Source: Berkelbacteria bacterium GW2011_GWE1_39_12 (lineage in GTDB: Bacteria; Patescibacteriota; UBA1384; UBA12157). Taken from it: a stretch of DNA of 64,000 bases. Below, in pieces: positions 7,449 to 52,773 of the stretch. The stretch spans positions 204,087 through 268,086 of the forward strand of contig CP011213.1 in NCBI GenBank assembly GCA_001029735.1. The letters are read 5' to 3'. Position numbers and translations under genes: made by a program. Numbering within the stretch: position 1 is the stretch's first letter; the number at the start of each line of letters is the position of its first letter. A model generated the notes under the pieces. It saw only the letters and a list, made by a program, of their open reading frames with translations. It was not told the origin of the DNA and did not search any database.

Positions 7449-8402
7449 CTACCTCGCAAAAATCTGTGTCACCATTATACCATGATCTTTTGTTTCTATC
7501 ACCCCCACTCCCATTTTAGTGAAGCTAGGGTCTAAAATATTGGCTTTATGCTTTGGACTATTCATTAAGCCAATTTGTGCCAAATCGATCGTCGGTGCCA
7601 AAGCGATGTTTTCAGCAGCTGCGATATATTCTACATGTGCGTTATTTAGTCGATCTAAAAGAACTTCACCAGTCGGGGATTCGTGGGCAAAATAGCCTCT
7701 GATTAACATGTCACGACTTTTAACTCTTGCCACATTTCGAATTAAGATATCTTCCGCTAAAGGCACTAGACCTTCTTTGGCCCTTTCCAAATTCACCATT
7801 GCAAACATTTGCTTTTCAGAGTCACCATCGATAGCTGTATCTGTTGTCGTAAAATCCAATTTAGATGTTTGATCCAAAACAGGATTGGAGGTTAAGTATC
7901 CAACCGTTCCATTTACACCGGCGAAAACCGTTTCTACCTGCGCTTCAATTCTTGCCGTCTGATGGATTAAATATCCGCCGATTAACGATTTTGAAATAGT
8001 TGATTTTAATCCACCCCAGATCGGCATAATCATAAAAAGAATTAGCAAAACGGCGATAAAAACTATTCCCTTTAACGCCGCTGGAAACAAACCGAAATAA
8101 TGGTTTGGCGCCGACTCTTTCAATTTGGACGGAGTGTAGTAAGAAAGATATTTGCCGATAATGTAGAAAAACATTTGAGATAAAAACCAGATGGTCAAGA
8201 AGCTAACTGGCCTGGTATATGAATCTGAAAAATGAATATCTTTTAACAATTGTTCTAAATTCGGATAAAATTTTAAAGCAAAAGCAAATGCAAACAGCAG
8301 GCCGGCAAATTCCCAAGCCAACCTTAAAAAACCCCGTCTGTAACCATCCCAGACGTATATAACAAAAACCGTGATGATAATAAAATCAATCCAATTAGGC
8401 AT
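7449..8402 (-). CDS. polytopic membrane protein with C-terminal CAP/SCP (YkwD-like) domain
   Basis: Multiple N-terminal TM helices. C-terminal GYFAHESPTGEVLLDRLNNAHVEYIAAAENIA resembles the CAP domain. Confidence 0.5.
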   Translation of the reverse strand: MPNWIDFIIITVFVIYVWDGYRRGFLRLAWEFAGLLFAFAFALKFYPNLEQLLKDIHFSDSYTRPVSFLTIWFLSQMFFYIIGKYLSYYTPSKLKESAPNHYFGLFPAALKGIVFIAVLLILFMIMPIWGGLKSTISKSLIGGYLIHQTARIEAQVETVFAGVNGTVGYLTSNPVLDQTSKLDFTTTDTAIDGDSEKQMFAMVNLERAKEGLVPLAEDILIRNVARVKSRDMLIRGYFAHESPTGEVLLDRLNNAHVEYIAAAENIALAPTIDLAQIGLMNSPKHKANILDPSFTKMGVGVIETKDHGIMVTQIFAR

Positions 8403-12923: not shown

Positions 12924-13403
12924 TTATTTTAAAACTATCTTGTAAGTGGTTACGCCCGAATCGTTAGTACCAGAAATACTGACATTTTGAGCATTTTTGA
13001 AAAATACAATTGAATCGGAAGAGCTAGCACTTATGATCCAGCTCTCTTTAGCTAACTGAGTTTTAAAATAGCTCAATACCACGTTAACAGGTGCTAGGAC
13101 TTTGTATTCGGCGGCAACTGTGCCATCTGCCGCTTTTAAGAAAGAAACTCTCACAGCTTTCGGATATCGAGTTGTGCCAACCGGATCTTCGCCCGAAACA
13201 TCTGTTTTCGGTAAAGCGGCAGTATTTAATCCGAAAAGATTGGCGTTCTGAGTGGAAACACTCCCGACCGCATTTTTAGCTGAAGTACCTAAATTGTCTG
13301 CTTTAACCCTAGCCGAATAATATATAAAATATCCCGCGCCAAAATTTAGCGTTAAAAGGATTAAAATTAAAGATGTTACTAATTTTTTAGACATTAATAC
13401 CAT
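12924..13403 (-). CDS. hypothetical secreted/anchored protein
   Basis: N-terminal TM/signal sequence. No recognisable domain. Confidence 0.3.
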   Translation of the reverse strand: MVLMSKKLVTSLILILLTLNFGAGYFIYYSARVKADNLGTSAKNAVGSVSTQNANLFGLNTAALPKTDVSGEDPVGTTRYPKAVRVSFLKAADGTVAAEYKVLAPVNVVLSYFKTQLAKESWIISASSSDSIVFFKNAQNVSISGTNDSGVTTYKIVLK

Positions 13404-21906: not shown

Positions 21907-22623
21907 TTAAAACTTAAAATCGATGATTGACCCAGGCAAACTCAAAAGTTTAACATCATAAGCTGCCCCGTATTTAGCGATTGGTTTCTGAGTATTATCA
22001 TTAAAAGCTGCGCTTACATTATAATTTCCACCGCCTGCCAAGCATGAAAATTTGTAGTACCCATTTGCATCCGGGGACATGCTAGCCACCGTGATATTAT
22101 TGGTTTTTAAGGAAATCTTTGGACTGGCGTTAAGAGTAGACTTAACCGGAGGCTTGCCGTTCACTGTCATCTGACCTTTAATATAAGGCAATGAAATAAG
22201 TTTTAAAGTTTTTATTGTTTCAGTCCTTCCGGCATTTAAAAAAACTTCAGGAGAACCAGCGCCGCCGCCTACTGCACAATCGGAAGACATATAGACCATA
22301 ACCCGATATGTTGCCGGCGTTGCCACATTACTAAATGTATAACTACCTTTTGTTTTAATATTCCCTGAGCCAGCATAACCACCGCCCACTTGTTTTTTCA
22401 ACAGAAAGACAGTGTAGTCATGCGAGAGGCCGTCATTGCTTGTTACATTTCCAGTTATCGTACCAACCCCCATCTTATTAGAAGGTCTACTGCCTCCGTC
22501 CCGATTGGCAGCAAAAGTAGACAGGGTTCCATTAAGTATAGCGTTAGTTGCAAATCCGGCACCAACGAGTATTAGTACAACGAAGATAGATAACAAGATT
22601 TTTGCTCTTTTGCTCTTGAACAT
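21907..22623 (-). CDS. secreted protein with carboxypeptidase-regulatory-like beta-sandwich repeats
   Basis: Signal peptide and Gly/Ser-rich Ig-like repeats. A minus-strand terminator follows at about 21862-21886. Confidence 0.3.
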   Translation of the reverse strand: MFKSKRAKILLSIFVVLILVGAGFATNAILNGTLSTFAANRDGGSRPSNKMGVGTITGNVTSNDGLSHDYTVFLLKKQVGGGYAGSGNIKTKGSYTFSNVATPATYRVMVYMSSDCAVGGGAGSPEVFLNAGRTETIKTLKLISLPYIKGQMTVNGKPPVKSTLNASPKISLKTNNITVASMSPDANGYYKFSCLAGGGNYNVSAAFNDNTQKPIAKYGAAYDVKLLSLPGSIIDFKF

Positions 22624-22728
22624 TTTATGCCCTCCTACTTAAATTTACTTATCTCTAGAATAACTTTTCTAACAAATTAAATCAATTTTTTTAATTCTTT
22701 CGATCAACCACTCGGGATTTCACCACAC

Positions 22729-24588
22729 TCATATTCTTTCGATAAGGTACTCTGGTATTTCGCTTAAAAATCGCGAGGGCATGTTGGCGGATGTCGTACC
22801 AAAAATCATGCGGCAACGAGCGTGAGTCATATATAATCTTTTCTGTGCGCGCGTCATGCCGACATAGCAAAGGCGGCGTTCCTCTTCGACTTCGTTTGGA
22901 TCGGCCAAGCAATTGGAATGGGGGAACAAACCTTCCTCCATTCCGACCATAAAAACAATCGGAAACTCGAGTCCTTTAGCATTATGCAAGGTCATCAGTG
23001 TCACAGCTTCAGCGTCTTTATTATAATTATCAACATCGGAAACCAGCGCTACATTTTCCAAAAATTCTTCCAAGGATTCAGACTTTTGCGCTACCGATTT
23101 TAATTCCTCAATATTTTCCCAACGGCTCTCCCCTTCTTCAGTTCCATCTAAAATATAATTTTTGTAACCTGATTCGCGAGTGACTTCATCGATTAATTCA
23201 TCAATTTTTTTTTCTTTTGCCGCATTACGGAAATTTTCCATCATTTGCATGAAGACTTTAATTTTCGGATTTTCTAAATCAAACGCAGCCGCCGTTTTTT
23301 CCCCTATCCCACGAGTTGGGGTATTAATAATGCGACGCAAAGAGACTTTGTCCGATTCGTTATGGATCACTTTTAAATAAGCCAAAATATCTTTGATTTC
23401 TCTTCGGTCATAAAAACGCAAAGCGCCAATCAAGCGATAGGGAATTCGGTTTTGTAAAAAAAACTCTTCAATAATACGTGATTGGGCATTGGTTCTATAG
23501 AGGATCGTAAAATCGTTTAGTGAATTCATGTGTGAAAAAGCCACAATTTCATTTTTCACAAATTCAATTTCGTCGAGTTCGTTGTTTGCTTCATAAACAG
23601 AGGCTGGCATCCCCTCTTCGTTTTCAGTCCAAAGTTTCTTTTCACTTCTTAAAGTGTTTCGCTCAATCACACTTTGGGCCGCTTCCAAAATATTTTTAGT
23701 CGACCGATAGTTCTGTTCCATTTTAATCACCACGGCTTCCGGATAATCTTTTTCAAAATCTAAAATATTTTTAAAATTAGCGCCTCGAAAACCATAAATC
23801 GCCTGAAAGTCGTCGCCCACCACACAAATATTTTTGTATTTTTCTGAAAGCAAATTGACCAAACGATATTGGACCGTATTAGTATCTTGATACTCATCGA
23901 TTAAAATATAACGAAATAATTCCTGATACCGTTTTAAAATTTCGGGGAACTTTGTAAATAACTCGACGGTTTTAACTAGTAAATCATCGAAATCCAAGGC
24001 ATTAGCGTTCTTCAATTCTTTTTGGTATTGGATATAGACTCGGACTACTACTTCGCCAAAATGACCCTTGGAATATTTGGCATATTCTTTAGGATTCATA
24101 AGTTCATTTTTAGCGCCGGAAATAAAATTCTTGATAGTTTTTGGACTATACTGTTTTTTATCAATATTCAATTCATCCATCGCATTTTTAATGGCCGCCA
24201 AAGATTCGTCGGAATCATAGATTACAAAGCTTCGTCTGAATTCGATATTGTGAATTTCTTGGCGCAAAATCTTGCAGCAAATGGAGTGAAACGTCCCCAT
24301 CCAAGGAAGCAATGAAACAACTTGTCTGTAGGAGTTAACCGGCGCTTTTTCCCCCAATAAATGATTGATACGTTTTTTCATCTCCTCGGAGGCTTTATTA
24401 GTAAAAGTGACCGCCAAAATATTTTGAGGATGAACATTTTTCTCACGGATTAAATAGGCGATTCGATGCGTCAAAACTTTGGTTTTACCAGAGCCCGCAC
24501 CAGCCAATATCAAAACCGGCCCTTCGGTTTGAAGCACAGCTTTTTTCTGATCGACATTGAGCCCAGTTAAAATATTTTCATTTTCCAT
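22729..24588 (-). CDS. pcrA: ATP-dependent DNA helicase PcrA/UvrD
   Basis: Walker A LAGAGSGKTKVLTHRIAYLI and UvrD helicase motifs. Confidence 0.9.
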   Translation of the reverse strand: MENENILTGLNVDQKKAVLQTEGPVLILAGAGSGKTKVLTHRIAYLIREKNVHPQNILAVTFTNKASEEMKKRINHLLGEKAPVNSYRQVVSLLPWMGTFHSICCKILRQEIHNIEFRRSFVIYDSDESLAAIKNAMDELNIDKKQYSPKTIKNFISGAKNELMNPKEYAKYSKGHFGEVVVRVYIQYQKELKNANALDFDDLLVKTVELFTKFPEILKRYQELFRYILIDEYQDTNTVQYRLVNLLSEKYKNICVVGDDFQAIYGFRGANFKNILDFEKDYPEAVVIKMEQNYRSTKNILEAAQSVIERNTLRSEKKLWTENEEGMPASVYEANNELDEIEFVKNEIVAFSHMNSLNDFTILYRTNAQSRIIEEFFLQNRIPYRLIGALRFYDRREIKDILAYLKVIHNESDKVSLRRIINTPTRGIGEKTAAAFDLENPKIKVFMQMMENFRNAAKEKKIDELIDEVTRESGYKNYILDGTEEGESRWENIEELKSVAQKSESLEEFLENVALVSDVDNYNKDAEAVTLMTLHNAKGLEFPIVFMVGMEEGLFPHSNCLADPNEVEEERRLCYVGMTRAQKRLYMTHARCRMIFGTTSANMPSRFLSEIPEYLIERI

Positions 24589-24818
24589 TGCAAAGGCATT
24601 GTATCAAAATTTGAGGAAAGGAAAAAGCTCGCTCGGCGGTCTAAAGAATGAGACTCCCCGGACTCCGCTTCGCTCCAGCCGGGTTTCTTTAGGGAGCTGC
24701 AAGCACAGCTTACAGTTTATCAAAATGCGAGCATTTTGAGCGGAAGCCATTCATCCCCGCATTCCAGCGGGCTAAAAAAACCAGACGACGCCCGCTTACA
24801 TACGGGGTTTCCTGGCTT

Positions 24819-24842
24819 TGAAAAACCCGGATTTCTCCGGGA
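24819..24842 (-). terminator. rho-independent terminator after ORF 24859-25824
   Basis: Minus strand CCCGGAGAAATCCGGG followed by TTTTTCAAAG. Confidence 0.7.
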
Positions 24843-24858
24843 TAAAATAGATTATTCC

Positions 24859-25824
24859 TTATAGATCGAGCCCGACCTGTTGGGCTCTGAATATCTGGCC
24901 TCTTAGACTTGCGAGTTCCTCATTGAGTCCAATGCTTGCTTCCTCAAGTTCGGTCCTAGCCGTCTTGATTCTTACCGGGATCGTGACGTACTCGTCCCCA
25001 CCAGCTGAGCTTATGAACGCGAGCTCAATGGCTTCAATTTGTTGTCTTCTCTCTTCGGCCCGTCGTCGATATCCTTCCACACCCTGCCTAGCCCAACCGC
25101 GTTCGCTCTCAAGTTGCTCGTTAACCGCTGGCCACTCACTCGTATCTATCCCTAACATCTTTCCAAGATGATAAAGGTTTAGAATGTTGGCAGTGCCATC
25201 ACGCTCTAGCAATCTTCGAACTACGGCAGAATTGCCGATAAAAATCGCGCATTCATTACCATCGGGTCGTCGATTATCCGTCTCGGTTCGCATCCGCTCC
25301 AGCCACGTCAGGTAATTGAATAGGTCAGTATGCGTCAGTCTGATATGTGAGTATTTCTCGACACCGTTCATCTTGACGGCAGGTCCTACCAAATTCATCA
25401 AACCGTCTGAATTGTAGAGAACCGGCTTTTCCGAAGTGATCACCGAGAGGATTGAAGGCAATGTACTTGATGCCGGATGCTCGATAAAGAGAAACTGTCC
25501 GATATGTCGGCGGATTCTCCGCAGTAAGCGCGGAATCTTGGCCATTGCCTCTTCACGTTTACCAATGAAAGTTGCAACGCAAAAGTCGATGATTGGTCCG
25601 CCCAAAGTGGCTCGGCCTTCTTTGATTTCCCGTGATAGCGTCTGCATCCGGCTGCGTATTTCAGCAAGCTCTCTCACAAGTTGCTTGCTTTCGGTCTCAG
25701 CCCCACTTAGACAATCTTCCAAAACCATAAGATCTTTACGTCTGTTTATACGCATCTTCCAACCCCCAGATTTTTCACGTTCGACAATCAATATATTATT
25801 AACATATTCTAATCTGACCGTCAA
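24859..25824 (-). CDS. hypothetical R/E-rich protein in GC-richer island
   Basis: 321 aa with no recognisable motif. Codon and GC composition is distinct from the neighbouring genes. Flanked by rho-independent terminators on both sides. Confidence 0.3.
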   Translation of the reverse strand: MTVRLEYVNNILIVEREKSGGWKMRINRRKDLMVLEDCLSGAETESKQLVRELAEIRSRMQTLSREIKEGRATLGGPIIDFCVATFIGKREEAMAKIPRLLRRIRRHIGQFLFIEHPASSTLPSILSVITSEKPVLYNSDGLMNLVGPAVKMNGVEKYSHIRLTHTDLFNYLTWLERMRTETDNRRPDGNECAIFIGNSAVVRRLLERDGTANILNLYHLGKMLGIDTSEWPAVNEQLESERGWARQGVEGYRRRAEERRQQIEAIELAFISSAGGDEYVTIPVRIKTARTELEEASIGLNEELASLRGQIFRAQQVGLDL

Positions 25825-25844
25825 TCATATAATTGAAACTTTTT

Positions 25845-25871
25845 ACAAAAAAGGCGCGCAACTGCGCGCCG
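25845..25871 (-). terminator. rho-independent terminator ending a non-coding minus-strand transcript
   Basis: Minus strand GGCGCGCAGTTGCGCGCC followed by TTTTTTG. It lies upstream of the start of 24859-25824. Confidence 0.75.
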
Positions 25872-26211
25872 CTACAACAAGAATATTATAGTAAATTAAA
25901 AGGCGCGATCGAGATGCGGTCCATTAATTTTAATTATAAACCGATCGTCGCGCCCCTATGATGTGGGCAAAGTATTTGGCTTTGTCCCTATCACAGATTT
26001 TCATCTTCAATAAGGACCACCTAACTAAACCCGTTCTCCTACTATATATAAATACGGTAAGAGGAAAAGCTCGAGGTCCCTCCTTGAACTTTTCTCCTCA
26101 CCGTCTATTCCCTTCCTTTTTTAAAGATCTATCAATTCATCAATTCCATGATTATAATTTGTGAAGCAAATTTCCGCATTGATACTTAATTTATTAAGTA
26201 TCAATTATACT
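25872..26211 (-). ncRNA. candidate approximately 340-nt non-coding transcript (or micro-ORF RNA) between the sigma-factor gene and ORF 24859-25824
   Basis: Bounded by a promoter and a strong terminator. No ORF over 25 codons on the minus strand. Internal stems such as GGCGCGA...TCGCGCC. Family not identified. Confidence 0.35.
26179..26204. promoter_or_regulatory. perfect 12-bp inverted repeat TTGATACTTAAT-tt-ATTAAGTATCAA (operator-like)
   Basis: Read directly from the sequence. Sits between the promoter and the motif element. Confidence 0.6.
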
Positions 26212-26240
26212 ATTGTACAGCATTTTGACGAGCTTGTCAA
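26212..26240 (-). promoter_or_regulatory. sigma-70-like promoter TTGACA-17 nt-TACAAT for the non-coding transcript
   Basis: Minus strand TTGACAagctcgtcaaaatgctgTACAAT. Downstream are the IR operator 26179-26204 and a CGCGGAAATTTG-type element. Confidence 0.55.
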
Positions 26241-26245
26241 GCCAC

Positions 26246-26277
26246 CTTAATAAAAATACCGCGTAAAACACGGTATT
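26246..26277 (-). terminator. rho-independent terminator of the sigma-factor gene
   Basis: Minus strand ATACCGTG-TTTTA-CGCGGTAT followed by TTTTATT, directly after the stop. Confidence 0.65.
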
Positions 26278-26279
26278 GA

Positions 26280-26960
26280 TTATGCAGCTAGCACCATTTC
26301 AGACTCGTTAGAGTCTAAGAGATGTTCAAAATTTTGACGCAGAAATTTATCACGTCTCAATTTGTCCAACATCTTGACCTCACGTTTTGAAATAGCCGCT
26401 CTGGTGATATTTTCGTGCTTGCCGATAGCCGTCTGTGTCATCGGCTCATTATCATCGAAACCAAAACGAAGATAAAGATATTCTCGTTCTTTAGACTCAA
26501 GCCTCATTAAAGCTTCAGAAATTATAGTTCGAATCACGTCATTATCTAAAACATCAAGCTCAAACGCCTCAGGTTCGATCTCAACGTCTGAGAATGGATC
26601 ATCGAGTGAAGGCAAATCCGATTCACGACAGTCGTGGGCATGGATCTTTAACTCTGCCATCATCTTCCAGGTTGCCCAAGTGGAAAATCTTAAGTTCTTA
26701 TTAAGGTCGAAGTCTTCGATCGCTTTTAGTATACCCAACCGAGCAGCCTGGCAAATATCTCCAAATGACATACCTATCCTTGGAGATCTCGCAGCAAAGT
26801 TGACTACCAAACCTTCATTGCAATCCAGAAAAATGGCTGCAGCTTCCTGATCGCCTCCCCGGATTCGGAGTATCAAATTTCTTTCCTGCTCTCGAGATAA
26901 TAACGGACGACGAGCTGACCTAATGCGGCCGATAGAAGTGAAATCGTCGTTTCGAAACAA
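26280..26960 (-). CDS. sigma-70 family alternative sigma factor (group 3/4-like), TTG start
   Basis: Region 2 (DICQAARLGILKAIEDFDLNKNLRFSTWATWKMMAEL) and region 4 (YLYLRFGFDDNEPMTQTAIGKHENITRAAISKREVKMLDKLR). RBS AGGAGGTGA lies upstream of the TTG. GC-richer than background. Confidence 0.7.
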   Translation of the reverse strand: MFRNDDFTSIGRIRSARRPLLSREQERNLILRIRGGDQEAAAIFLDCNEGLVVNFAARSPRIGMSFGDICQAARLGILKAIEDFDLNKNLRFSTWATWKMMAELKIHAHDCRESDLPSLDDPFSDVEIEPEAFELDVLDNDVIRTIISEALMRLESKEREYLYLRFGFDDNEPMTQTAIGKHENITRAAISKREVKMLDKLRRDKFLRQNFEHLLDSNESEMVLAA

Positions 26961-27058
26961 TTAACTCACCTCCTAAAAAACCAAAACTATTGTATATCAA
27001 TTAACAATTTCAATCAAGAGGACCTCGCGTTTTGCCTGATGTCGTCAGCTAGCGCAAG

Positions 27059-27220
27059 TTTATTCGCTGGACTGCAGCTTTTTGTCCAGCGTCATAAAAT
27101 TAAAAATACAATTTATGACCTTACTCCGAAGACTGAAGTTTCTTGTCCAGCGTCATAAAATAATCACTAATTCATGACCTATTCAGATGATTGAAGTTTT
27201 TTATCTAAGGTCATGAATTT
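27059..27220 (-). repeat. three tandem copies of the dnaB terminal segment FMTLDKKLQSSE-stop with only synonymous differences
   Basis: Minus-strand copies: ATGACCTTAGATAAAAAACTTCAATCATCTGAATAG (in dnaB), ATGACGCTGGACAAGAAACTTCAGTCTTCGGAGTAA, ATGACGCTGGACAAAAAGCTGCAGTCCAGCGAATAA. Period is about 58-61 nt. Confidence 0.85.
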
Positions 27221-28525
27221 CATATACTCTGGTTTCCAGAAGAGACCAATGTCGCCGGTTGGACCGTTACGATGTTTTTTAATTAAAAGTTCGGCAATAT
27301 TTTGATTTTCGGTTTCTTTATCATAGTAATCGTCGCGATATAGAAACATAACAATATCAGCATCTTGTTCAATAGAACCTGATTCACGCAAATCGGAAAG
27401 CATCGGGCGTTTGTTATCTCGGTGCTCCACTCCGCGAGAAAGTTGAGATAAAGCCATCACTGGCACATTTAATTCACGAGCTAAGGATTTTAGATTACGG
27501 GATATTTCTGAAACTTCCTGCACGCGGCTATCGGATTGTTTGGAAGTGCCTTGTAATAGCTGCAGGTAATCGATGACGATTAAGCCCAAGCCATGATCGG
27601 CTTGAAGACGGCGGCACTTGGTGCGAATTTCCATTACGTTCACAATCGGTGAATCATCGATAAAAATTGGCGCTTCGGAAAGTACTCCCATCGCGTAGTT
27701 TAATTTGCCGAAATCTTCATCGTCCAAATTGCCGGTTCTCAGTTTCCACGAATCCACTGAGCCACGGCTGCAAAGCAAACGATCAATCACCTGTTCTTTA
27801 CTCATTTCAAGGGAAAAAATTCCGACTGGCACTTTTTCGTCACAAGCCACGTGGTCAGCAATGTTTAGAGCAAACGATGATTTTCCCAAGGAAGGACGTG
27901 CGGCCAAAATAATCAAATCGGATTGCTGCAAACCAGCCGTCAAATTATCCAAATCTCGCAATCCTGTCGGAACGCCGCGTAATGTCCCTTTGTCACGATG
28001 CAGTTTATCGATACGCTCAAAACTATCGGACAAAATATCTTTGATCGATGTAAAGTATTGTTTGATATAATTTTGTGAAACGCCAAAAAGTGAACTTTCC
28101 GCTTGATCCAAAATTGATTCAATTTCCGTCGTCTCGTCGTACCCTAATTGGGCGATGGTGGTGGCGGCGGAAATTAAGCGTCGTAGTGTCGCCTTTTGCT
28201 GAATAATTTGGGCATAGGTCACAATGTTGGCTGCTGTCGGCACAGAATTCACTAGCGTCGCCAAATAAGATGCGCCGCCAATTTCTTTTAACCTTTTATC
28301 TTTCTCTAAAAGATCAGTTAAAGTAACAACATCGATCGGCTGGCGTTTTTCATAAAGTTTTAAAATCGCTCGATAAATATCGCCGTGATCGGATCGATAA
28401 AAATCGTCCGGCTTTAAAAAATCCGCAATCTTTAAGAGAGCATCTTTATCCAACAAAAGAGAACCGAGAACTGATTGCTCGGCTTCAACATTTTGGGGCG
28501 GAATTTTTGCTATATCATTTGCCAT
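27179..28525 (-). CDS. dnaB: replicative DNA helicase DnaB
   Basis: DnaB N-domain, Walker A GKSSFALN and the C-terminal RNGPTGDIGLFW region. The 3' end is followed by two further copies of the last 12 codons. Confidence 0.9.
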   Translation of the reverse strand: MANDIAKIPPQNVEAEQSVLGSLLLDKDALLKIADFLKPDDFYRSDHGDIYRAILKLYEKRQPIDVVTLTDLLEKDKRLKEIGGASYLATLVNSVPTAANIVTYAQIIQQKATLRRLISAATTIAQLGYDETTEIESILDQAESSLFGVSQNYIKQYFTSIKDILSDSFERIDKLHRDKGTLRGVPTGLRDLDNLTAGLQQSDLIILAARPSLGKSSFALNIADHVACDEKVPVGIFSLEMSKEQVIDRLLCSRGSVDSWKLRTGNLDDEDFGKLNYAMGVLSEAPIFIDDSPIVNVMEIRTKCRRLQADHGLGLIVIDYLQLLQGTSKQSDSRVQEVSEISRNLKSLARELNVPVMALSQLSRGVEHRDNKRPMLSDLRESGSIEQDADIVMFLYRDDYYDKETENQNIAELLIKKHRNGPTGDIGLFWKPEYMKFMTLDKKLQSSE

Positions 28526-31021: not shown

Positions 31022-32929
31022 ATGACTTCGAGCGAACTAATCAAACAAATTAAAGTTTCGACAGGTTTGAGTGCGGAAAAAATTAAAAGTGCACTCAATA
31101 ATTTTCAAAACATTATAGCCGAAGAACTAAACGCCGGACGGGAAGTTCAAATGCCAGGTTTTGGCAATTTTGTGATAGTGAGCTATCCTTCACGGACGGT
31201 TTTAAATCCCCGAGATCCAAAACAAAAAATTGTTACCATTGGCTCAAATGTACCAAAGTTCAGACCTCACCCAGATCTAACAAACGCAATTAAAAATAAA
31301 AATTACTTGCCTTCCGATATAAACTCTCAAACTGACATTCCACAAACTACACAGGCTAATCAGGACCAAGGCATACCCATTGCTTACGAGGATTTGTCCG
31401 GGCTAACTATCCCGAAGAAAATTCTAGCGCTCGTGCCGGAACACGTGGCGAGGCATTTCCAAGCAGTTCCAATTGGCGAAAAAAATGGCCGAATTACTCT
31501 TGCCATGATTGATCCTGAAGATCGTGAAGCCCTGGAATTTATCAAAAAGAAAACCGGTCAAGAACTTGATCTCAAAATTTGTACCAAAGCTGATATCAAC
31601 CATATTTTAGACCAGTACTCCGGCATCAGCGGTGAGCTTAAAAAAATTGTCGACGAAGTCGGTTCAGATGAAATTGACGGCGAAAAAAAATCTGACAATT
31701 CAGAAAAACCAAAAGTTGAGTCTGTCTCAACTGAAGAAATAACCGAAACCGCTCCGGCAGCAAAAATCGCCCAATCAATAATCAGAAGAGCCGTAAGAGA
31801 AAAAGCCTCAGATATACATATCGAACCAACCGAAGAAGAAGTAATTGTCCGTTTTCGCGTTGATGGCATTTTAAGAAAAATTATTTCTTTACCGGTAGAA
31901 ATTTTACCGGCTTTGGTTTCACGTATAAAAATTTTGGCCAATATGAAAATTGACGAAACCAGGCTGCCGCAAGATGGCCGTTTCCAAGAAATATTAGATC
32001 AAAATGAAGTCGACTTTCGTGTCTCAACTTTTCCCACAGTTAATGGTGAAAAAGTGGTGGCTCGTATTTTGGACAAATCTTCCGGCATTATTTCACTCGA
32101 ACAGCTTGGCTTTCGCGGTAGCGCCTATAAGATTTTAGAAGACAACATCACTAAAGCTCATGGTATGATTTTATCGACTGGGCCGACTGGTTCAGGAAAA
32201 ACCACGACGCTTTACGCCATATTGCAGAAATTAATGAATGAAAAAGTAAATATTGTGACGTTGGAAGATCCGGTTGAATACAAAATGCCGACTATCAATC
32301 AAGGACAAATTCAATCAAATATAGGCTTCTCTTTCGCCTCTGGTTTGCGTTCAATTTTGCGCCAAGATCCCGACGTTATCATGGTTGGTGAAATTCGTGA
32401 TTACGAAACAGCCGACATGGCCATCCACTCGGCACTCACCGGTCATATCGTGCTTTCAACGCTCCATACTAACGACGCTGCTGGCGCAATCCCCCGCTTT
32501 GTCGATATGAAAATTGAACCATTTTTGATTAACTCATCGTTAAATGTTGTAGTCGCCCAAAGACTTTGCCGCAAAATTTGTCAATTTTGCCGAGAACCAA
32601 TTGAAATTGACGCAGCTAATATGGATGTGACAAAAAAAGAAATTGAAAATCTACCCCAAGCCGAAGAAAAACCGAGTAAATTGCAGTTTTATCACGGGAA
32701 AGGTTGTGGCAATTGTGGCCAGACAGGATACAAAGGCCGAATCGGGATTTTCGAAGTTTTTGAATTGGCGGAAAATGTTAAAGAACTCGTCGCTAAAAAA
32801 TCTTCTGGTTCAGATATTAACAATATGGCAATTAAAAACGGCATGGTAAGTTTACGCCAAGATGGCATATTAAAAGCAATCGACGGCTTGACCACTTTAG
32901 AAGAAGTATGGCGCGTCACAAAGGACTAA
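31022..32929 (+). CDS. pilB: type IV pilus assembly ATPase PilB/GspE with N-terminal HU/IHF-like DNA-binding domain fusion
   Basis: Residues 1-90 align with bacterial HU (ELI..GLS...FGNF.....R..NP.....I.I....VP.F.P). Then a GspE N-domain, Walker A GPTGSGKTTTLYA and the tetracysteine CxxC...CxxC. Confidence 0.85.
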   Translation: MTSSELIKQIKVSTGLSAEKIKSALNNFQNIIAEELNAGREVQMPGFGNFVIVSYPSRTVLNPRDPKQKIVTIGSNVPKFRPHPDLTNAIKNKNYLPSDINSQTDIPQTTQANQDQGIPIAYEDLSGLTIPKKILALVPEHVARHFQAVPIGEKNGRITLAMIDPEDREALEFIKKKTGQELDLKICTKADINHILDQYSGISGELKKIVDEVGSDEIDGEKKSDNSEKPKVESVSTEEITETAPAAKIAQSIIRRAVREKASDIHIEPTEEEVIVRFRVDGILRKIISLPVEILPALVSRIKILANMKIDETRLPQDGRFQEILDQNEVDFRVSTFPTVNGEKVVARILDKSSGIISLEQLGFRGSAYKILEDNITKAHGMILSTGPTGSGKTTTLYAILQKLMNEKVNIVTLEDPVEYKMPTINQGQIQSNIGFSFASGLRSILRQDPDVIMVGEIRDYETADMAIHSALTGHIVLSTLHTNDAAGAIPRFVDMKIEPFLINSSLNVVVAQRLCRKICQFCREPIEIDAANMDVTKKEIENLPQAEEKPSKLQFYHGKGCGNCGQTGYKGRIGIFEVFELAENVKELVAKKSSGSDINNMAIKNGMVSLRQDGILKAIDGLTTLEEVWRVTKD

Positions 32930-52071: not shown

Positions 52072-52773
52072 CTACTCCTTCTTGAAGTAGAGACCATTAT
52101 GATCGACATGGATACCGGCATGACCGGTAAGGATGAGTGATGCAATCTTTTGATGCGCCTCAGCGTCGTGAGGACTATTGAAGTCAATCGGTACTAAGAT
52201 AGTACCTTCATGAATAGCCCCTATCGGTGGGAAGTCAGGCGAAAGCTTTTTCGACAAAAGCAATCGATTGTCTTTCGTCGGATCTTGGCCATAAAAGCCA
52301 GAGAGATAATCAAGGACTTTGTGCCCTAACCCAGTCATGACCCGCAGGCTGGCATAGTTTTCGATACGGATTGTCATTTCCATGACCTTCATACCCTTCG
52401 TTATAGCCAGCAACTCATGCTCTTTTGCTAACCTTCTCCCCAAGCCATGACCCTGATGGTCAGGGTGGATCGCAATACCATAGCAATAGCAGGTAGGACT
52501 TTCGAACTCATGCGGCAGTATGTCGGTAGATATAGATTCAGTTAGAATCTGAGATTCGCCCACTAATTCATCGTTCTCATTATAGAGCAGGATAACATAG
52601 CCGTGTTTGTGAATCTCTACCAACTCTTCCTGAGTAATGCCGTGATGAGAGCCGAAAGCGGCGTCATCAACTTGTTTTGCCAAACCCAGGTCTTGCAAGC
52701 TGCAAGCCAGTCTCATGTAGTAAGGCTTACCTCTTTGCAAGAAATATTTCCTGTCAGAAATGATAGTCATCAA
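52072..52773 (-). CDS. GNAT family acetyltransferase
   Basis: GHGLGRRLAKEHELLA motif A-like. Confidence 0.5.
   Translation of the reverse strand: MMTIISDRKYFLQRGKPYYMRLACSLQDLGLAKQVDDAAFGSHHGITQEELVEIHKHGYVILLYNENDELVGESQILTESISTDILPHEFESPTCYCYGIAIHPDHQGHGLGRRLAKEHELLAITKGMKVMEMTIRIENYASLRVMTGLGHKVLDYLSGFYGQDPTKDNRLLLSKKLSPDFPPIGAIHEGTILVPIDFNSPHDAEAHQKIASLILTGHAGIHVDHNGLYFKKE

Follow-up and report, generated by a model that had tools for sequence, protein, structure and literature searches.

The 2.6-kb spacer between the helicase genes pcrA and dnaB of Berkelbacteria bacterium GW2011_GWE1_39_12 (positions 24589-27178 of a 64,000-nt stretch of contig CP011213.1, hereafter the window) carries an orphan gene, a structured small RNA (sRNA) and the gene of a small sigma factor. 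We find that this block is probably a mosaic, in which an ancestral sRNA gene is accompanied by two separate lineage-specific insertions in a recombination and insertion hot spot. The older part would be a stand-alone sRNA gene with its own promoter and terminators that the clade has retained. A self-contained sigma cassette would have entered between the 3' end of dnaB and the sRNA promoter, and a 1.24-kb GC-rich segment with the orphan gene would have entered downstream of the sRNA terminator and upstream of the pcrA promoter. Extra copies of the end of dnaB at the same boundary may be scars of repeated recombination with related lineages. The evidence consists of the anatomy of the block, the conservation and covariation of the sRNA, the absence of both protein genes from relatives and base composition; from these we infer how the cassettes were acquired and what roles the sRNA and the products of both protein genes may have.

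Relatives of the locus were found with a DnaB probe in species-representative genomes and metagenomes, and flanks of about 10 kb were examined (their loci are given as L plus a number). The order dnaX-dnaB-spacer-pcrA-G5-rsmA is kept by Berkelbacteria with 74-88% DnaB identity, representing about 15 distinct related lineages (L016, L053, L054, L057, L059-L064 and L071 among them), and the length of the spacer varies between 385 and 2935 bp. None of the spacers of these roughly 15 lineages holds a relative of the sigma factor or of the orphan (tblastn at E≤0.01 over the 10-kb loci), and the synteny comparison thus supports the initial annotation of the block in that both genes are specific to this lineage. 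Other spacers carry an HD-domain gene (L007, L016, L059 and L062), a DUF218 gene (the closest relative, L054), a gene for an SLT-domain protein, small Zn-ribbon open reading frames (ORFs) on the opposite strand, or no gene at all. The spacer, flanked on both sides by a conserved helicase gene, is therefore a hypervariable hot spot, and the block is a real but ordinary variable region. We note that ORF-free spacer DNA of 500-670 nt also lies beside the sRNA in L064 (7800-8300) and L053 (11342-12010), with no Rfam match; the L064 stretch is GC-rich (spacer 0.468, locus 0.393).

The sRNA, by contrast, is kept in the spacer of most of these relatives. Its ORF-free 357-nt stretch from promoter to terminator folds better than shuffled sequences (z=-7.6). 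A single-sequence nhmmer search with positions 25825-26279 as the query matches the spacer of most relatives, with E values down to 4e-19, and a profile of ten species matches L053, L057, L059-L062, L064, L016/63/71 and L072/65 at E values from 1e-42 to 1e-23, while it matches the window exactly once, at 26043-25895. The alignment reveals a conserved TTGACA / extended -10 TATAAT promoter, a long hairpin P1 with a AAGGAGGG loop (26054-26105 in the window), a hairpin P2 (26010-26042), an invariant UAGGGACAAAG hairpin, P3 (25956-25996), and, at the end, a GC-rich terminator with its T-run; two terminators, T1 (25893-25956) and T2 (25846-25870), end the window copy. By inspection, no ORF is shared across species in this alignment.

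Covariation supports the fold. Of the alignment cells in the 3' domain, 94.4% pair. Compensatory double changes are seen in 11 of the 27 pairs, whereas column shuffles yield 4.3±1.4 (0 of 500 reach 11) and a control in which the pairing partner was slid along the alignment yields 0-2. Hairpin P1 also covaries. We therefore find that the sRNA is an independent structured gene, ancestral to the locus and kept at this position by the clade. The non-coding transcript proposed in the initial annotation thus stands as a folded promoter-to-terminator stretch without an ORF, but it is ancestral and not part of a lineage-specific cargo.

Judged by its signals, the sRNA would be an autonomous and probably abundant structured RNA. 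It shares its own promoter, covarying hairpins and a Rho-independent terminator with stand-alone bacterial sRNA genes transcribed from sigma-70 promoters. CsrB and RsmZ are protein-sponge RNAs with repeated GGA-containing motifs, and the present RNA may be loosely analogous to them, with GGA-containing motifs in a loop and in single-stranded stretches. Its conserved, single-stranded AAGGAGGG motifs are rich in purines and, together with the invariant hairpin UAGGGACAAAG, would speculatively fit an RNA that binds a protein or the ribosome. It is unlike catalogued RNAs, since none of the 4227 Rfam families matches the window or nine relatives at the gathering threshold, and permissive searches (E≤10 and E≤1) of the window and 12 relative loci gave chance-level matches only for both non-coding stretches of the block. 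At its predicted start, the window copy has a perfect 13-bp palindrome, ATTGATACTTAAT-AA-ATTAAGTATCAAT (26178-26205), within a segment of about 40 nt that is found in the sRNA of no other species and is thus specific to the window; it could serve as an operator or as a 5' stabilising stem-loop.

The position of the sRNA in relatives also defines where the two cassettes lie. An extended -10 promoter of pcrA (TGnTACAAT / TATAAT) precedes the ATG by 9-10 nt in all species (9 nt in the window; sites in L060 at 7840-7863, in L061 at 1925-1949, in L016 at 13060-13085 and in the window as listed in Table 1), implying that pcrA would be transcribed into a leaderless or near-leaderless mRNA throughout the clade. 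In L060 and L061, no more than about 20 nt separate the sRNA terminator from this promoter. Because the terminator abuts the same pcrA promoter there, the orphan cassette corresponds to a 1.24-kb insertion. The sub-site of the sigma cassette, between the dnaB tail units described below and the sRNA promoter, is occupied by the HD gene or by nothing in other lineages. As the ancestral sRNA lies between the two cassettes, sigma factor and orphan occupy two different insertion sub-sites. No direct or inverted repeats of note flank either cassette.

Base composition separates the two cassettes further. The initial annotation had put the flanking genes at about 35% GC, but pcrA has a GC content of 0.383 and dnaB of 0.420, around a window mean of 0.399. 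Its estimate of about 50% for the ORF at 24859-25824 was close to the computed value of 0.481 (z=2.45; 2% of windows are as high), and the window-wide maximum at this length (0.501) falls over this ORF. The GC content at its third codon positions (GC3) is 0.48, compared with 0.32-0.39 in most genes, and several other genes of the window reach 0.46-0.56. The sigma gene, on the other hand, is no compositional outlier: its GC content of 0.430 is at the level of dnaB and is reached by 20% of windows. For the whole block the value is 0.439, which 8% of windows match. The anomaly is in fact narrower than the block and extends from 24611 to 25852 (GC 0.478), being sharpest in non-coding DNA, namely in the 270 nt that separate the orphan gene from pcrA (0.489, compared with 0.347 in all other intergenic DNA pooled), while the sigma cassette (0.421) is close to dnaB and the sRNA has 0.381.

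At the protein level, both products of the block are rich in arginine, as the initial annotation had stated, and with 10.9% (orphan) and 10.2% (sigma factor) they rank first and second among the 63 ORFs. In codon usage the orphan gene is 8th and the sigma gene 14th of the 63. Only the orphan segment, in its coding and its non-coding part, bears the compositional signature of a foreign origin. Consequently, the idea of a horizontally acquired cargo holds in that both genes are lineage-specific and the orphan is compositionally foreign, but it does not extend to the composition of the sigma gene, which is native.

The orphan segment (24611-25852, 1.24 kb) contains a promoter-like site, the ORF, two terminator-like sites and a GC-rich non-coding stretch of about 165 nt. 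The ORF runs for 321 codons from a TTG, and the likely start is the ATG at 25755, which is preceded by a G-rich ribosome-binding site and a promoter-like TTGACG-18-AATAAT and gives 298 residues, as in the NCBI record. Its stop-free run exceeds the maximum of 218 codons in 2000 shuffles and its codon-position bias is typical of coding DNA (p=7e-5), so that the ORF is statistically real. The initial annotation had described an unknown protein of 321 residues; the shorter length is the more likely one.

Searches for relatives of the orphan were extensive. A word-indexed search of 5.8 billion proteins gave no close relative, and an exhaustive phmmer search of 1.84 billion representatives returned the protein itself and two chance matches. 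Pfam, PHROGs, NCBIfam, PADLOC and PDB gave chance-level coiled-coil matches at most, and phages, plasmids (tblastn) and IMG/VR gave nothing. The protein is rich in arginine, glutamate and leucine and is predicted to be cytoplasmic; single-sequence AlphaFold models it as all-helical, with long N- and C-terminal helices, at a poor mean confidence (pLDDT 46.5). The GC-rich tail of the segment (24605-24860) was also considered as a duplicate of the 3' domain of the sRNA and was rejected, since the similarity score equals the shuffle mean.

The sigma gene (26280-26960) starts with TTG, 8 nt downstream of an AGGAGG, and its product matches Sigma70_r2 (PF04542, residues 47-98, 34.6 bits against a cut-off of 24) and Sigma70_r4 (PF04545, residues 150-202, 37.5 bits against 24.1). 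Pfam and the ribosome-binding site thus agree with the initial annotation, which had described a sigma factor with regions 2 and 4 only, a TTG start and a strong ribosome-binding site. No Sigma70_r3 match was obtained at E≤1 in Pfam; in place of region 3, a short acidic linker of about 48 residues (101-149) joins region 1.2/2 (residues 17-101) to region 4 (150-202). Among NCBIfam models, only the generic sigma-70 model TIGR02937 is passed (63.7 bits against 42.9). In full-length alignment, SigE/SigK-type models score best, without any equivalog cut-off being reached, and the N-terminal part (17-100) aligns to regions 1.2-2 of RpoD and RpoS; residues 17-101 also align to solved structures of SigA and RpoS in the PDB with up to 78 bits. 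By these alignments, the protein is classified as a small sigma factor without region 3, whose region 2 resembles that of groups 1-3 and not that of extracytoplasmic function (ECF) sigma factors.

Similarly to alternative sigma-70 factors of groups 3 and 4 (SigE/SigK, ECF), the protein combines regions 2 and 4 at a small size of 226 residues, but it differs in lacking region 3 while having a region 2 of group 1/2 type. It shares the two-domain layout of ECF factors, yet its best matches are to regions 1.2-2 of SigA, RpoS and SigE. ECF genes are usually co-transcribed with an anti-sigma gene, whereas here a terminator-like site follows the gene and no partner gene lies downstream. If expressed, the factor would, by family membership, direct core RNA polymerase to a promoter set of its own.

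No protein among 5.8 billion sequences shares even a few 5-mers with the sigma factor, and no match to it was found among IMG/VR viral contigs. Matches in phages and plasmids are generic, with about 22-28% full-length identity, and the match to phrog_351 was rejected as reflecting the sigma fold. The anti-phage system MZA was likewise rejected: only the sigma domains match MzaA (77.5 bits against an NCBIfam cut-off of 800), the PADLOC hit is partial, and the partner genes MzaB-E are not in the block. No tie to a mobile element was found. The gene is an ordinary member of the sigma-70 family, small and very divergent, and its composition is native; the suggestion in the initial annotation that a horizontally acquired sigma factor could rewire transcription is weak.

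Several observations weigh against the reading of the block as a mosaic of old RNA and new cassettes. The nearest relatives are at least 12% diverged in DnaB, so that gain in this lineage is not strictly separable from loss or replacement elsewhere. Since no donor was found, a horizontal origin rests on the composition of the orphan and on absence from relatives; given its native composition, the sigma gene could also have been resident for long or be a paralogue that moved here. Finally, the closest relative (L054/L055, 88% DnaB identity) has no sRNA and carries the DUF218 gene instead. In general, chromosomal hot spots and islets hold accessory genes between conserved core genes and are sites of integration and recombination. 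The spacer has in common with them its fixed core flanks, its lineage-variable content and one deviant cassette, but here no recombinase, tRNA or att repeats are present, and a conserved sRNA gene splits the site in two.

The boundary with dnaB is itself unusual. As noted in the initial annotation, the 3' end of dnaB is triplicated: the last 12 codons occur three times, with two extra copies of FMTLDKKLQSSE plus a stop past the TAG of the gene. The start-to-start distances of 58 and 61 nt place these copies in frames +1 and +2 (units A, B and C; Table 1). Units A and B differ at 10 nt and units B and C at 8 nt, and all differences are synonymous, including TTA/CTG and TCG/AGC switches; B and C share an identical 5' part of 17-18 nt and then diverge. 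Unit A is enclosed by a perfect 12-bp stem (27208-27219 with 27169-27180), and unit B has an 8-bp stem of its own (3' arm at 27110-27120). In both, the first codons of the unit form the 5' arm and the 3' arm lies past the stop, and the two stems differ by a compensating TTC-to-TTT / G-to-A change.

Similar arrays occur in L016 (11345-11440), L060 (7336-7500), L062 (7312-7410), L065/72 (L065, 4615-4810) and L066 (3580-3680), compared with 27060-27219 on the minus strand of the window, and weaker ones in L057 and L059, so that at least six species carry them; the L065/72 array has three units, in frames 0, +1 and +2. None was found at other dnaB loci (129 examined). Across six genomes, 80 of the 81 compared codons specify the same residue and 61 of 62 nucleotide differences are synonymous. 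Arrays without cargo between dnaB and the sRNA are present in L060 and L065/72, and L007 has cargo without an array; because array and cargo occur independently, the arrays are not att scars of the present cargo.

We find it most economical, at about even chances, to read the arrays as scars that recombination left at the dnaB boundary. Saturation of synonymous sites extends to DnaB pairs of 97% identity, where identical residues share a codon in a fraction of 0.42-0.56 of cases, and for this reason a close relative can donate a fully recoded tail that encodes the same peptide. Individual units indeed resemble the tails of relatives. In its codons, unit C comes nearest to the functional tail of L054, the closest relative. 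Unit 2 of L057 encodes the tail peptide of L058 (12 residues, with 5 synonymous differences in 39 nt), unit 2 of L060 resembles the tail of L064, and unit 2 of L066 differs from unit 1 of L065 at 3 of 39 nt, though these genomes are saturated at synonymous sites.

Several points do not follow from the scar reading by itself. Between units of the same genome 25 of 100 codons are shared, a lower fraction than the roughly 0.47 of saturated orthologues. Every tail copy is found on the dnaB side of the cargo, and none brackets the cargo or lies near pcrA. Nor does the reading account for the inverted-repeat arms, the regular +1 phasing or the association of array-bearing dnaB genes with TAG stops.

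Alternatively, the copies could be selected functional cassettes, either as alternative or back-up C-termini of DnaB or as coupled micro-ORFs that supply free tail peptides, a reading that we consider unlikely. Such cassettes could come into use through recoding at TAG, through deletion of the proximal unit or through the loss and gain of units. A function would fit the near-perfect agreement of the encoded residues between units within the six genomes, the switches between codon families of serine (TCG/AGC), leucine (TTA/CTG) and arginine (AGA/CGC), the placement of each successive unit in the +1 frame in both three-unit arrays, the TAG at the end of array-bearing genes, and stems kept by compensating synonymous changes (window A/B and L065/L066), as well as the low codon sharing between units. 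However, in the window a TGA blocks reading on from unit A to unit B in the +1 frame, and loss of RF1 or reassignment of TAG was rejected, since TAG is an ordinary stop that ends 17 of the 63 ORFs. Moreover, the three units of the window encode identical peptides, so that switching alters nothing, and the synonymous saturation described above explains the recoding without a function. Distal units are degenerate in L066, L067 and L059, and a similar copy at pcrA is decaying.

A diversity-generating retroelement was rejected as a source of the arrays: by inspection, the units differ synonymously and at all bases, not at adenines specifically, and no reverse transcriptase ORF is present. A general habit of tail duplication was also rejected, as only dnaB and pcrA of the 63 genes show it. 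The pcrA copy (22680-22728, minus strand) begins 12 nt past the TGA (stop at 22729) and reads PEWLIERI in place of the functional PEYLIERI-stop. It is absent from relatives and carries a Y-to-W change, a 1-nt deletion and a lost stop. It lies directly upstream of a gene at 21907-22623 (minus strand), situated between pcrA and the G5-domain gene, whose 238-residue product has a hydrophobic, signal-like segment at its N-terminus and matches CarboxypepD_reg/SdrD-B-like models weakly. Since relatives have pcrA directly followed by the G5 gene, this gene is another lineage-specific insertion.

Homology-facilitated illegitimate recombination combines a one-sided homologous anchor with a join at microhomology. 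The dnaB arrays would share with it a conserved anchor beside non-homologous DNA, short junction duplications and adjacent alleles of relatives, but it does not predict an inverted-repeat arm or the excess dissimilarity of the units. For recoded 3'-end duplications in bacteria, a literature search gave nothing specific, and the closest analogue is found in fungal mitochondria, where insertions of homing endonucleases or mobile ORFs duplicate or displace C-terminal ends, as in Allomyces atp6, Phlebia cox2/atp6 and Ophiostoma rps3 (PMC4019555). Both systems have a second copy of the last codons past the stop of an essential gene that stays intact. Unlike the fungal cases, the dnaB arrays have no endonuclease ORF or cargo between the copies, which are separated by spacers of 7-51 nt, and they comprise up to three units, with a stem formed from a unit's own first codons.

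Turning from the arrays to the block as a whole, vertical inheritance is an improbable alternative to the mosaic. Sigma factor and orphan would then be old genes that evolve fast or were lost or replaced in the sampled relatives, with the GC content of the orphan following from its amino acids and from local mutation bias. The native-like GC content and codon usage of the sigma gene agree with this, as do the remodelling of the spacer in every lineage, which makes losses common, and the high divergence often seen in proteins of the Candidate Phyla Radiation (CPR). It is countered by the absence of both genes from about 15 lineages, including the closest at 88% DnaB identity, and by a GC excess that reaches the third codon positions of the orphan and 270 nt of non-coding DNA. 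In addition, the same sub-sites hold unrelated genes or nothing in relatives, and the sRNA terminator can touch the pcrA promoter directly.

It is very unlikely that the three parts form one functional module, with the RNA as a terminator-controlled leader of the orphan gene, or the orphan as an anti-sigma factor or other partner of the sigma factor. The parts are adjacent, co-oriented and unique in their combination, the two terminators of the RNA closely precede the orphan gene, whose product is a predicted cytoplasmic helical protein, as are many anti-sigma factors. However, what follows the RNA in relatives is an unrelated gene, a gene on the opposite strand or pcrA itself, and with a conserved promoter of its own the RNA is not a dedicated leader; past the terminators, the orphan gene is preceded by a promoter-like site of its own, and its product matches no anti-sigma family in Pfam or NCBIfam. 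Nothing links sigma factor, RNA and orphan functionally.

Least probable of all, and largely refuted, is the view, in line with the initial annotation, that the whole 2.6 kb is one decayed prophage, integrative and conjugative element (ICE) or islet remnant at the dnaB 3' end, with its integrase lost and the dnaB triplication as its att scars: the absent cargo, the GC-rich orphan segment, the adjoining repeats of the dnaB end and the way in which units B and C share a 5' part before diverging, as attL and attR would, are outweighed by an sRNA in the middle that relatives retain without either cargo gene (in place of an empty site lacking the whole unit), by arrays in the cargo-free L060, L065 and L072 and cargo without an array in L007, by the absence of any tail copy or other repeat on the pcrA side and of attL/attR direct repeats bracketing the insert, by the lack of a recombinase, integrase or remnant of one in the block (ORF list, Pfam, PHROG and PADLOC), by phage, plasmid and viral searches that gave no relatives beyond a generic sigma similarity of about 25%, and by a composition that deviates in the orphan segment (24611-25852) but neither in the sigma cassette nor in the sRNA.

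In sum, the mosaic of an ancestral sRNA and two independent insertions accounts best for the locus, whose features are collected in Table 1. Both proteins of the block are 100% identical to the hypothetical proteins DD449_03085 and DD449_03090 of Candidatus Berkelbacteria (CPR/Patescibacteria), on contigs of up to 915 kb, and the same locus is present on six further public contigs. The window and L001, L002 and L003 represent one strain, with 1 SNP over the aligned 2.8 kb; an apparent frameshift of the orphan gene in L002 is a run of N and was discarded. The sequence of the block is therefore real and reproducible, and it comes from one strain, without population variation.

All genes from rsmA to dnaB are on the minus strand, in the order pcrA (22729-24588), the 321-codon ORF (24859-25824), the sigma ORF (26280-26960) and dnaB (27179-28525). 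Each unit of the block has a promoter-like and a terminator-like site in a consensus scan, all on the minus strand, and at the level of such consensus matches the block would consist of four independent minus-strand transcription units. The strong terminators of the initial annotation were recovered at 24841-24826, 25870-25853 and 26277-26255 on the minus strand. Its statement that the block contains no integrase also stands: ORFs of at least 60 residues there comprise only the sigma gene, the orphan gene and non-genic overlaps. ARAGORN found no tRNA or tmRNA in the 64 kb.

Table 1. Features of the dnaB-pcrA spacer in window coordinates, listed from dnaB towards pcrA; promoter and terminator entries are consensus matches.
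Feature	Coordinates	Strand	Description or basis
dnaB tail unit A	27179..27217	-	functional last 12 codons, FMTLDKKLQSSE, with TAG stop
dnaB tail unit B	27121..27159	-	same 12 residues with TAA, +1 frame
dnaB tail unit C	27060..27098	-	same 12 residues with TAA, +2 frame
Putative sigma promoter TTGATT-17-TACAAT and AGGAGG ribosome-binding site	26965..27017	-	consensus
226-aa sigma-70-family factor	26280..26960	-	Pfam, NCBIfam, structure alignment
Putative intrinsic terminator of the sigma gene	26249..26277	-	consensus scan
sRNA promoter TTGACA-17-TACAAT	26202..26240	-	position and sequence conserved in relatives
Structured sRNA, about 350 nt	25846..26205	-	folding, conservation, covariation
Putative orphan promoter TTGACG-18-AATAAT and G-rich ribosome-binding site	25756..25824	-	consensus
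298-aa ORFan, NCBI DD449_03085	24859..25755	-	homology searches, composition
Two putative tandem intrinsic terminators past the orphan gene	24774..24841	-	consensus scan
Non-coding tail of the inserted segment, GC about 0.49	24610..24773	-	moderately structured; without homologue in relatives
Native extended -10 promoter of pcrA, TGATACAAT	24595..24609	-	conserved in relatives; right edge of the insertion

Beyond the spacer, in-frame insertions of about 1.1-1.2 kb interrupt dnaB in L007 (11173-12371) and L008 (11227-12398), and the one in L007 reads as an intein with a homing-endonuclease-like middle. Alignment gaps of similar size occur in pcrA of L057 (9310-10403) and L061 (2720-3816). Selfish elements that target dnaB and pcrA thus appear to be active in the clade, and as intein hosts in relatives the two genes are akin to the target genes of fungal mobile ORFs.

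Elsewhere in the window, an ORF-free stretch of 582 nt (52188-52769) has a GC content of 0.455, compared with 0.35 in typical intergenic DNA, matches neither Rfam nor tRNA/tmRNA models, and may be another uncatalogued RNA gene. A gene at 31022-32929 (plus strand) encodes a PilB-type type IV pilus ATPase (T2SSE, MshEN) with an N-terminal HU/IHF-like domain (PF00216, HU-HIG; precomputed Pfam). This PilB-HU fusion is unusual, and the protein is conserved in relatives at 53-75% identity.

The locus illustrates that an island called by composition can have the wrong boundaries, since comparative data split this one. The 298-residue ORFan is a true singleton among 1.84 billion representatives and shows the limits of homology-based annotation in CPR genomes. 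The dnaB tail arrays are either a clean natural record of recombination between saturated lineages or a new kind of function located where an essential gene ends; if the latter were true, an essential helicase gene would carry synonymous spare ends, dissimilar in nucleotides and identical in peptide, beside an uncatalogued sRNA. A literature search on mobile elements or non-coding RNAs of Berkelbacteria gave nothing specific, and to our knowledge almost no regulatory RNAs are known from this phylum-level CPR lineage. The structured sRNA of about 350 nt, conserved in Berkelbacteria and not in Rfam, is thus a candidate for a new RNA family.

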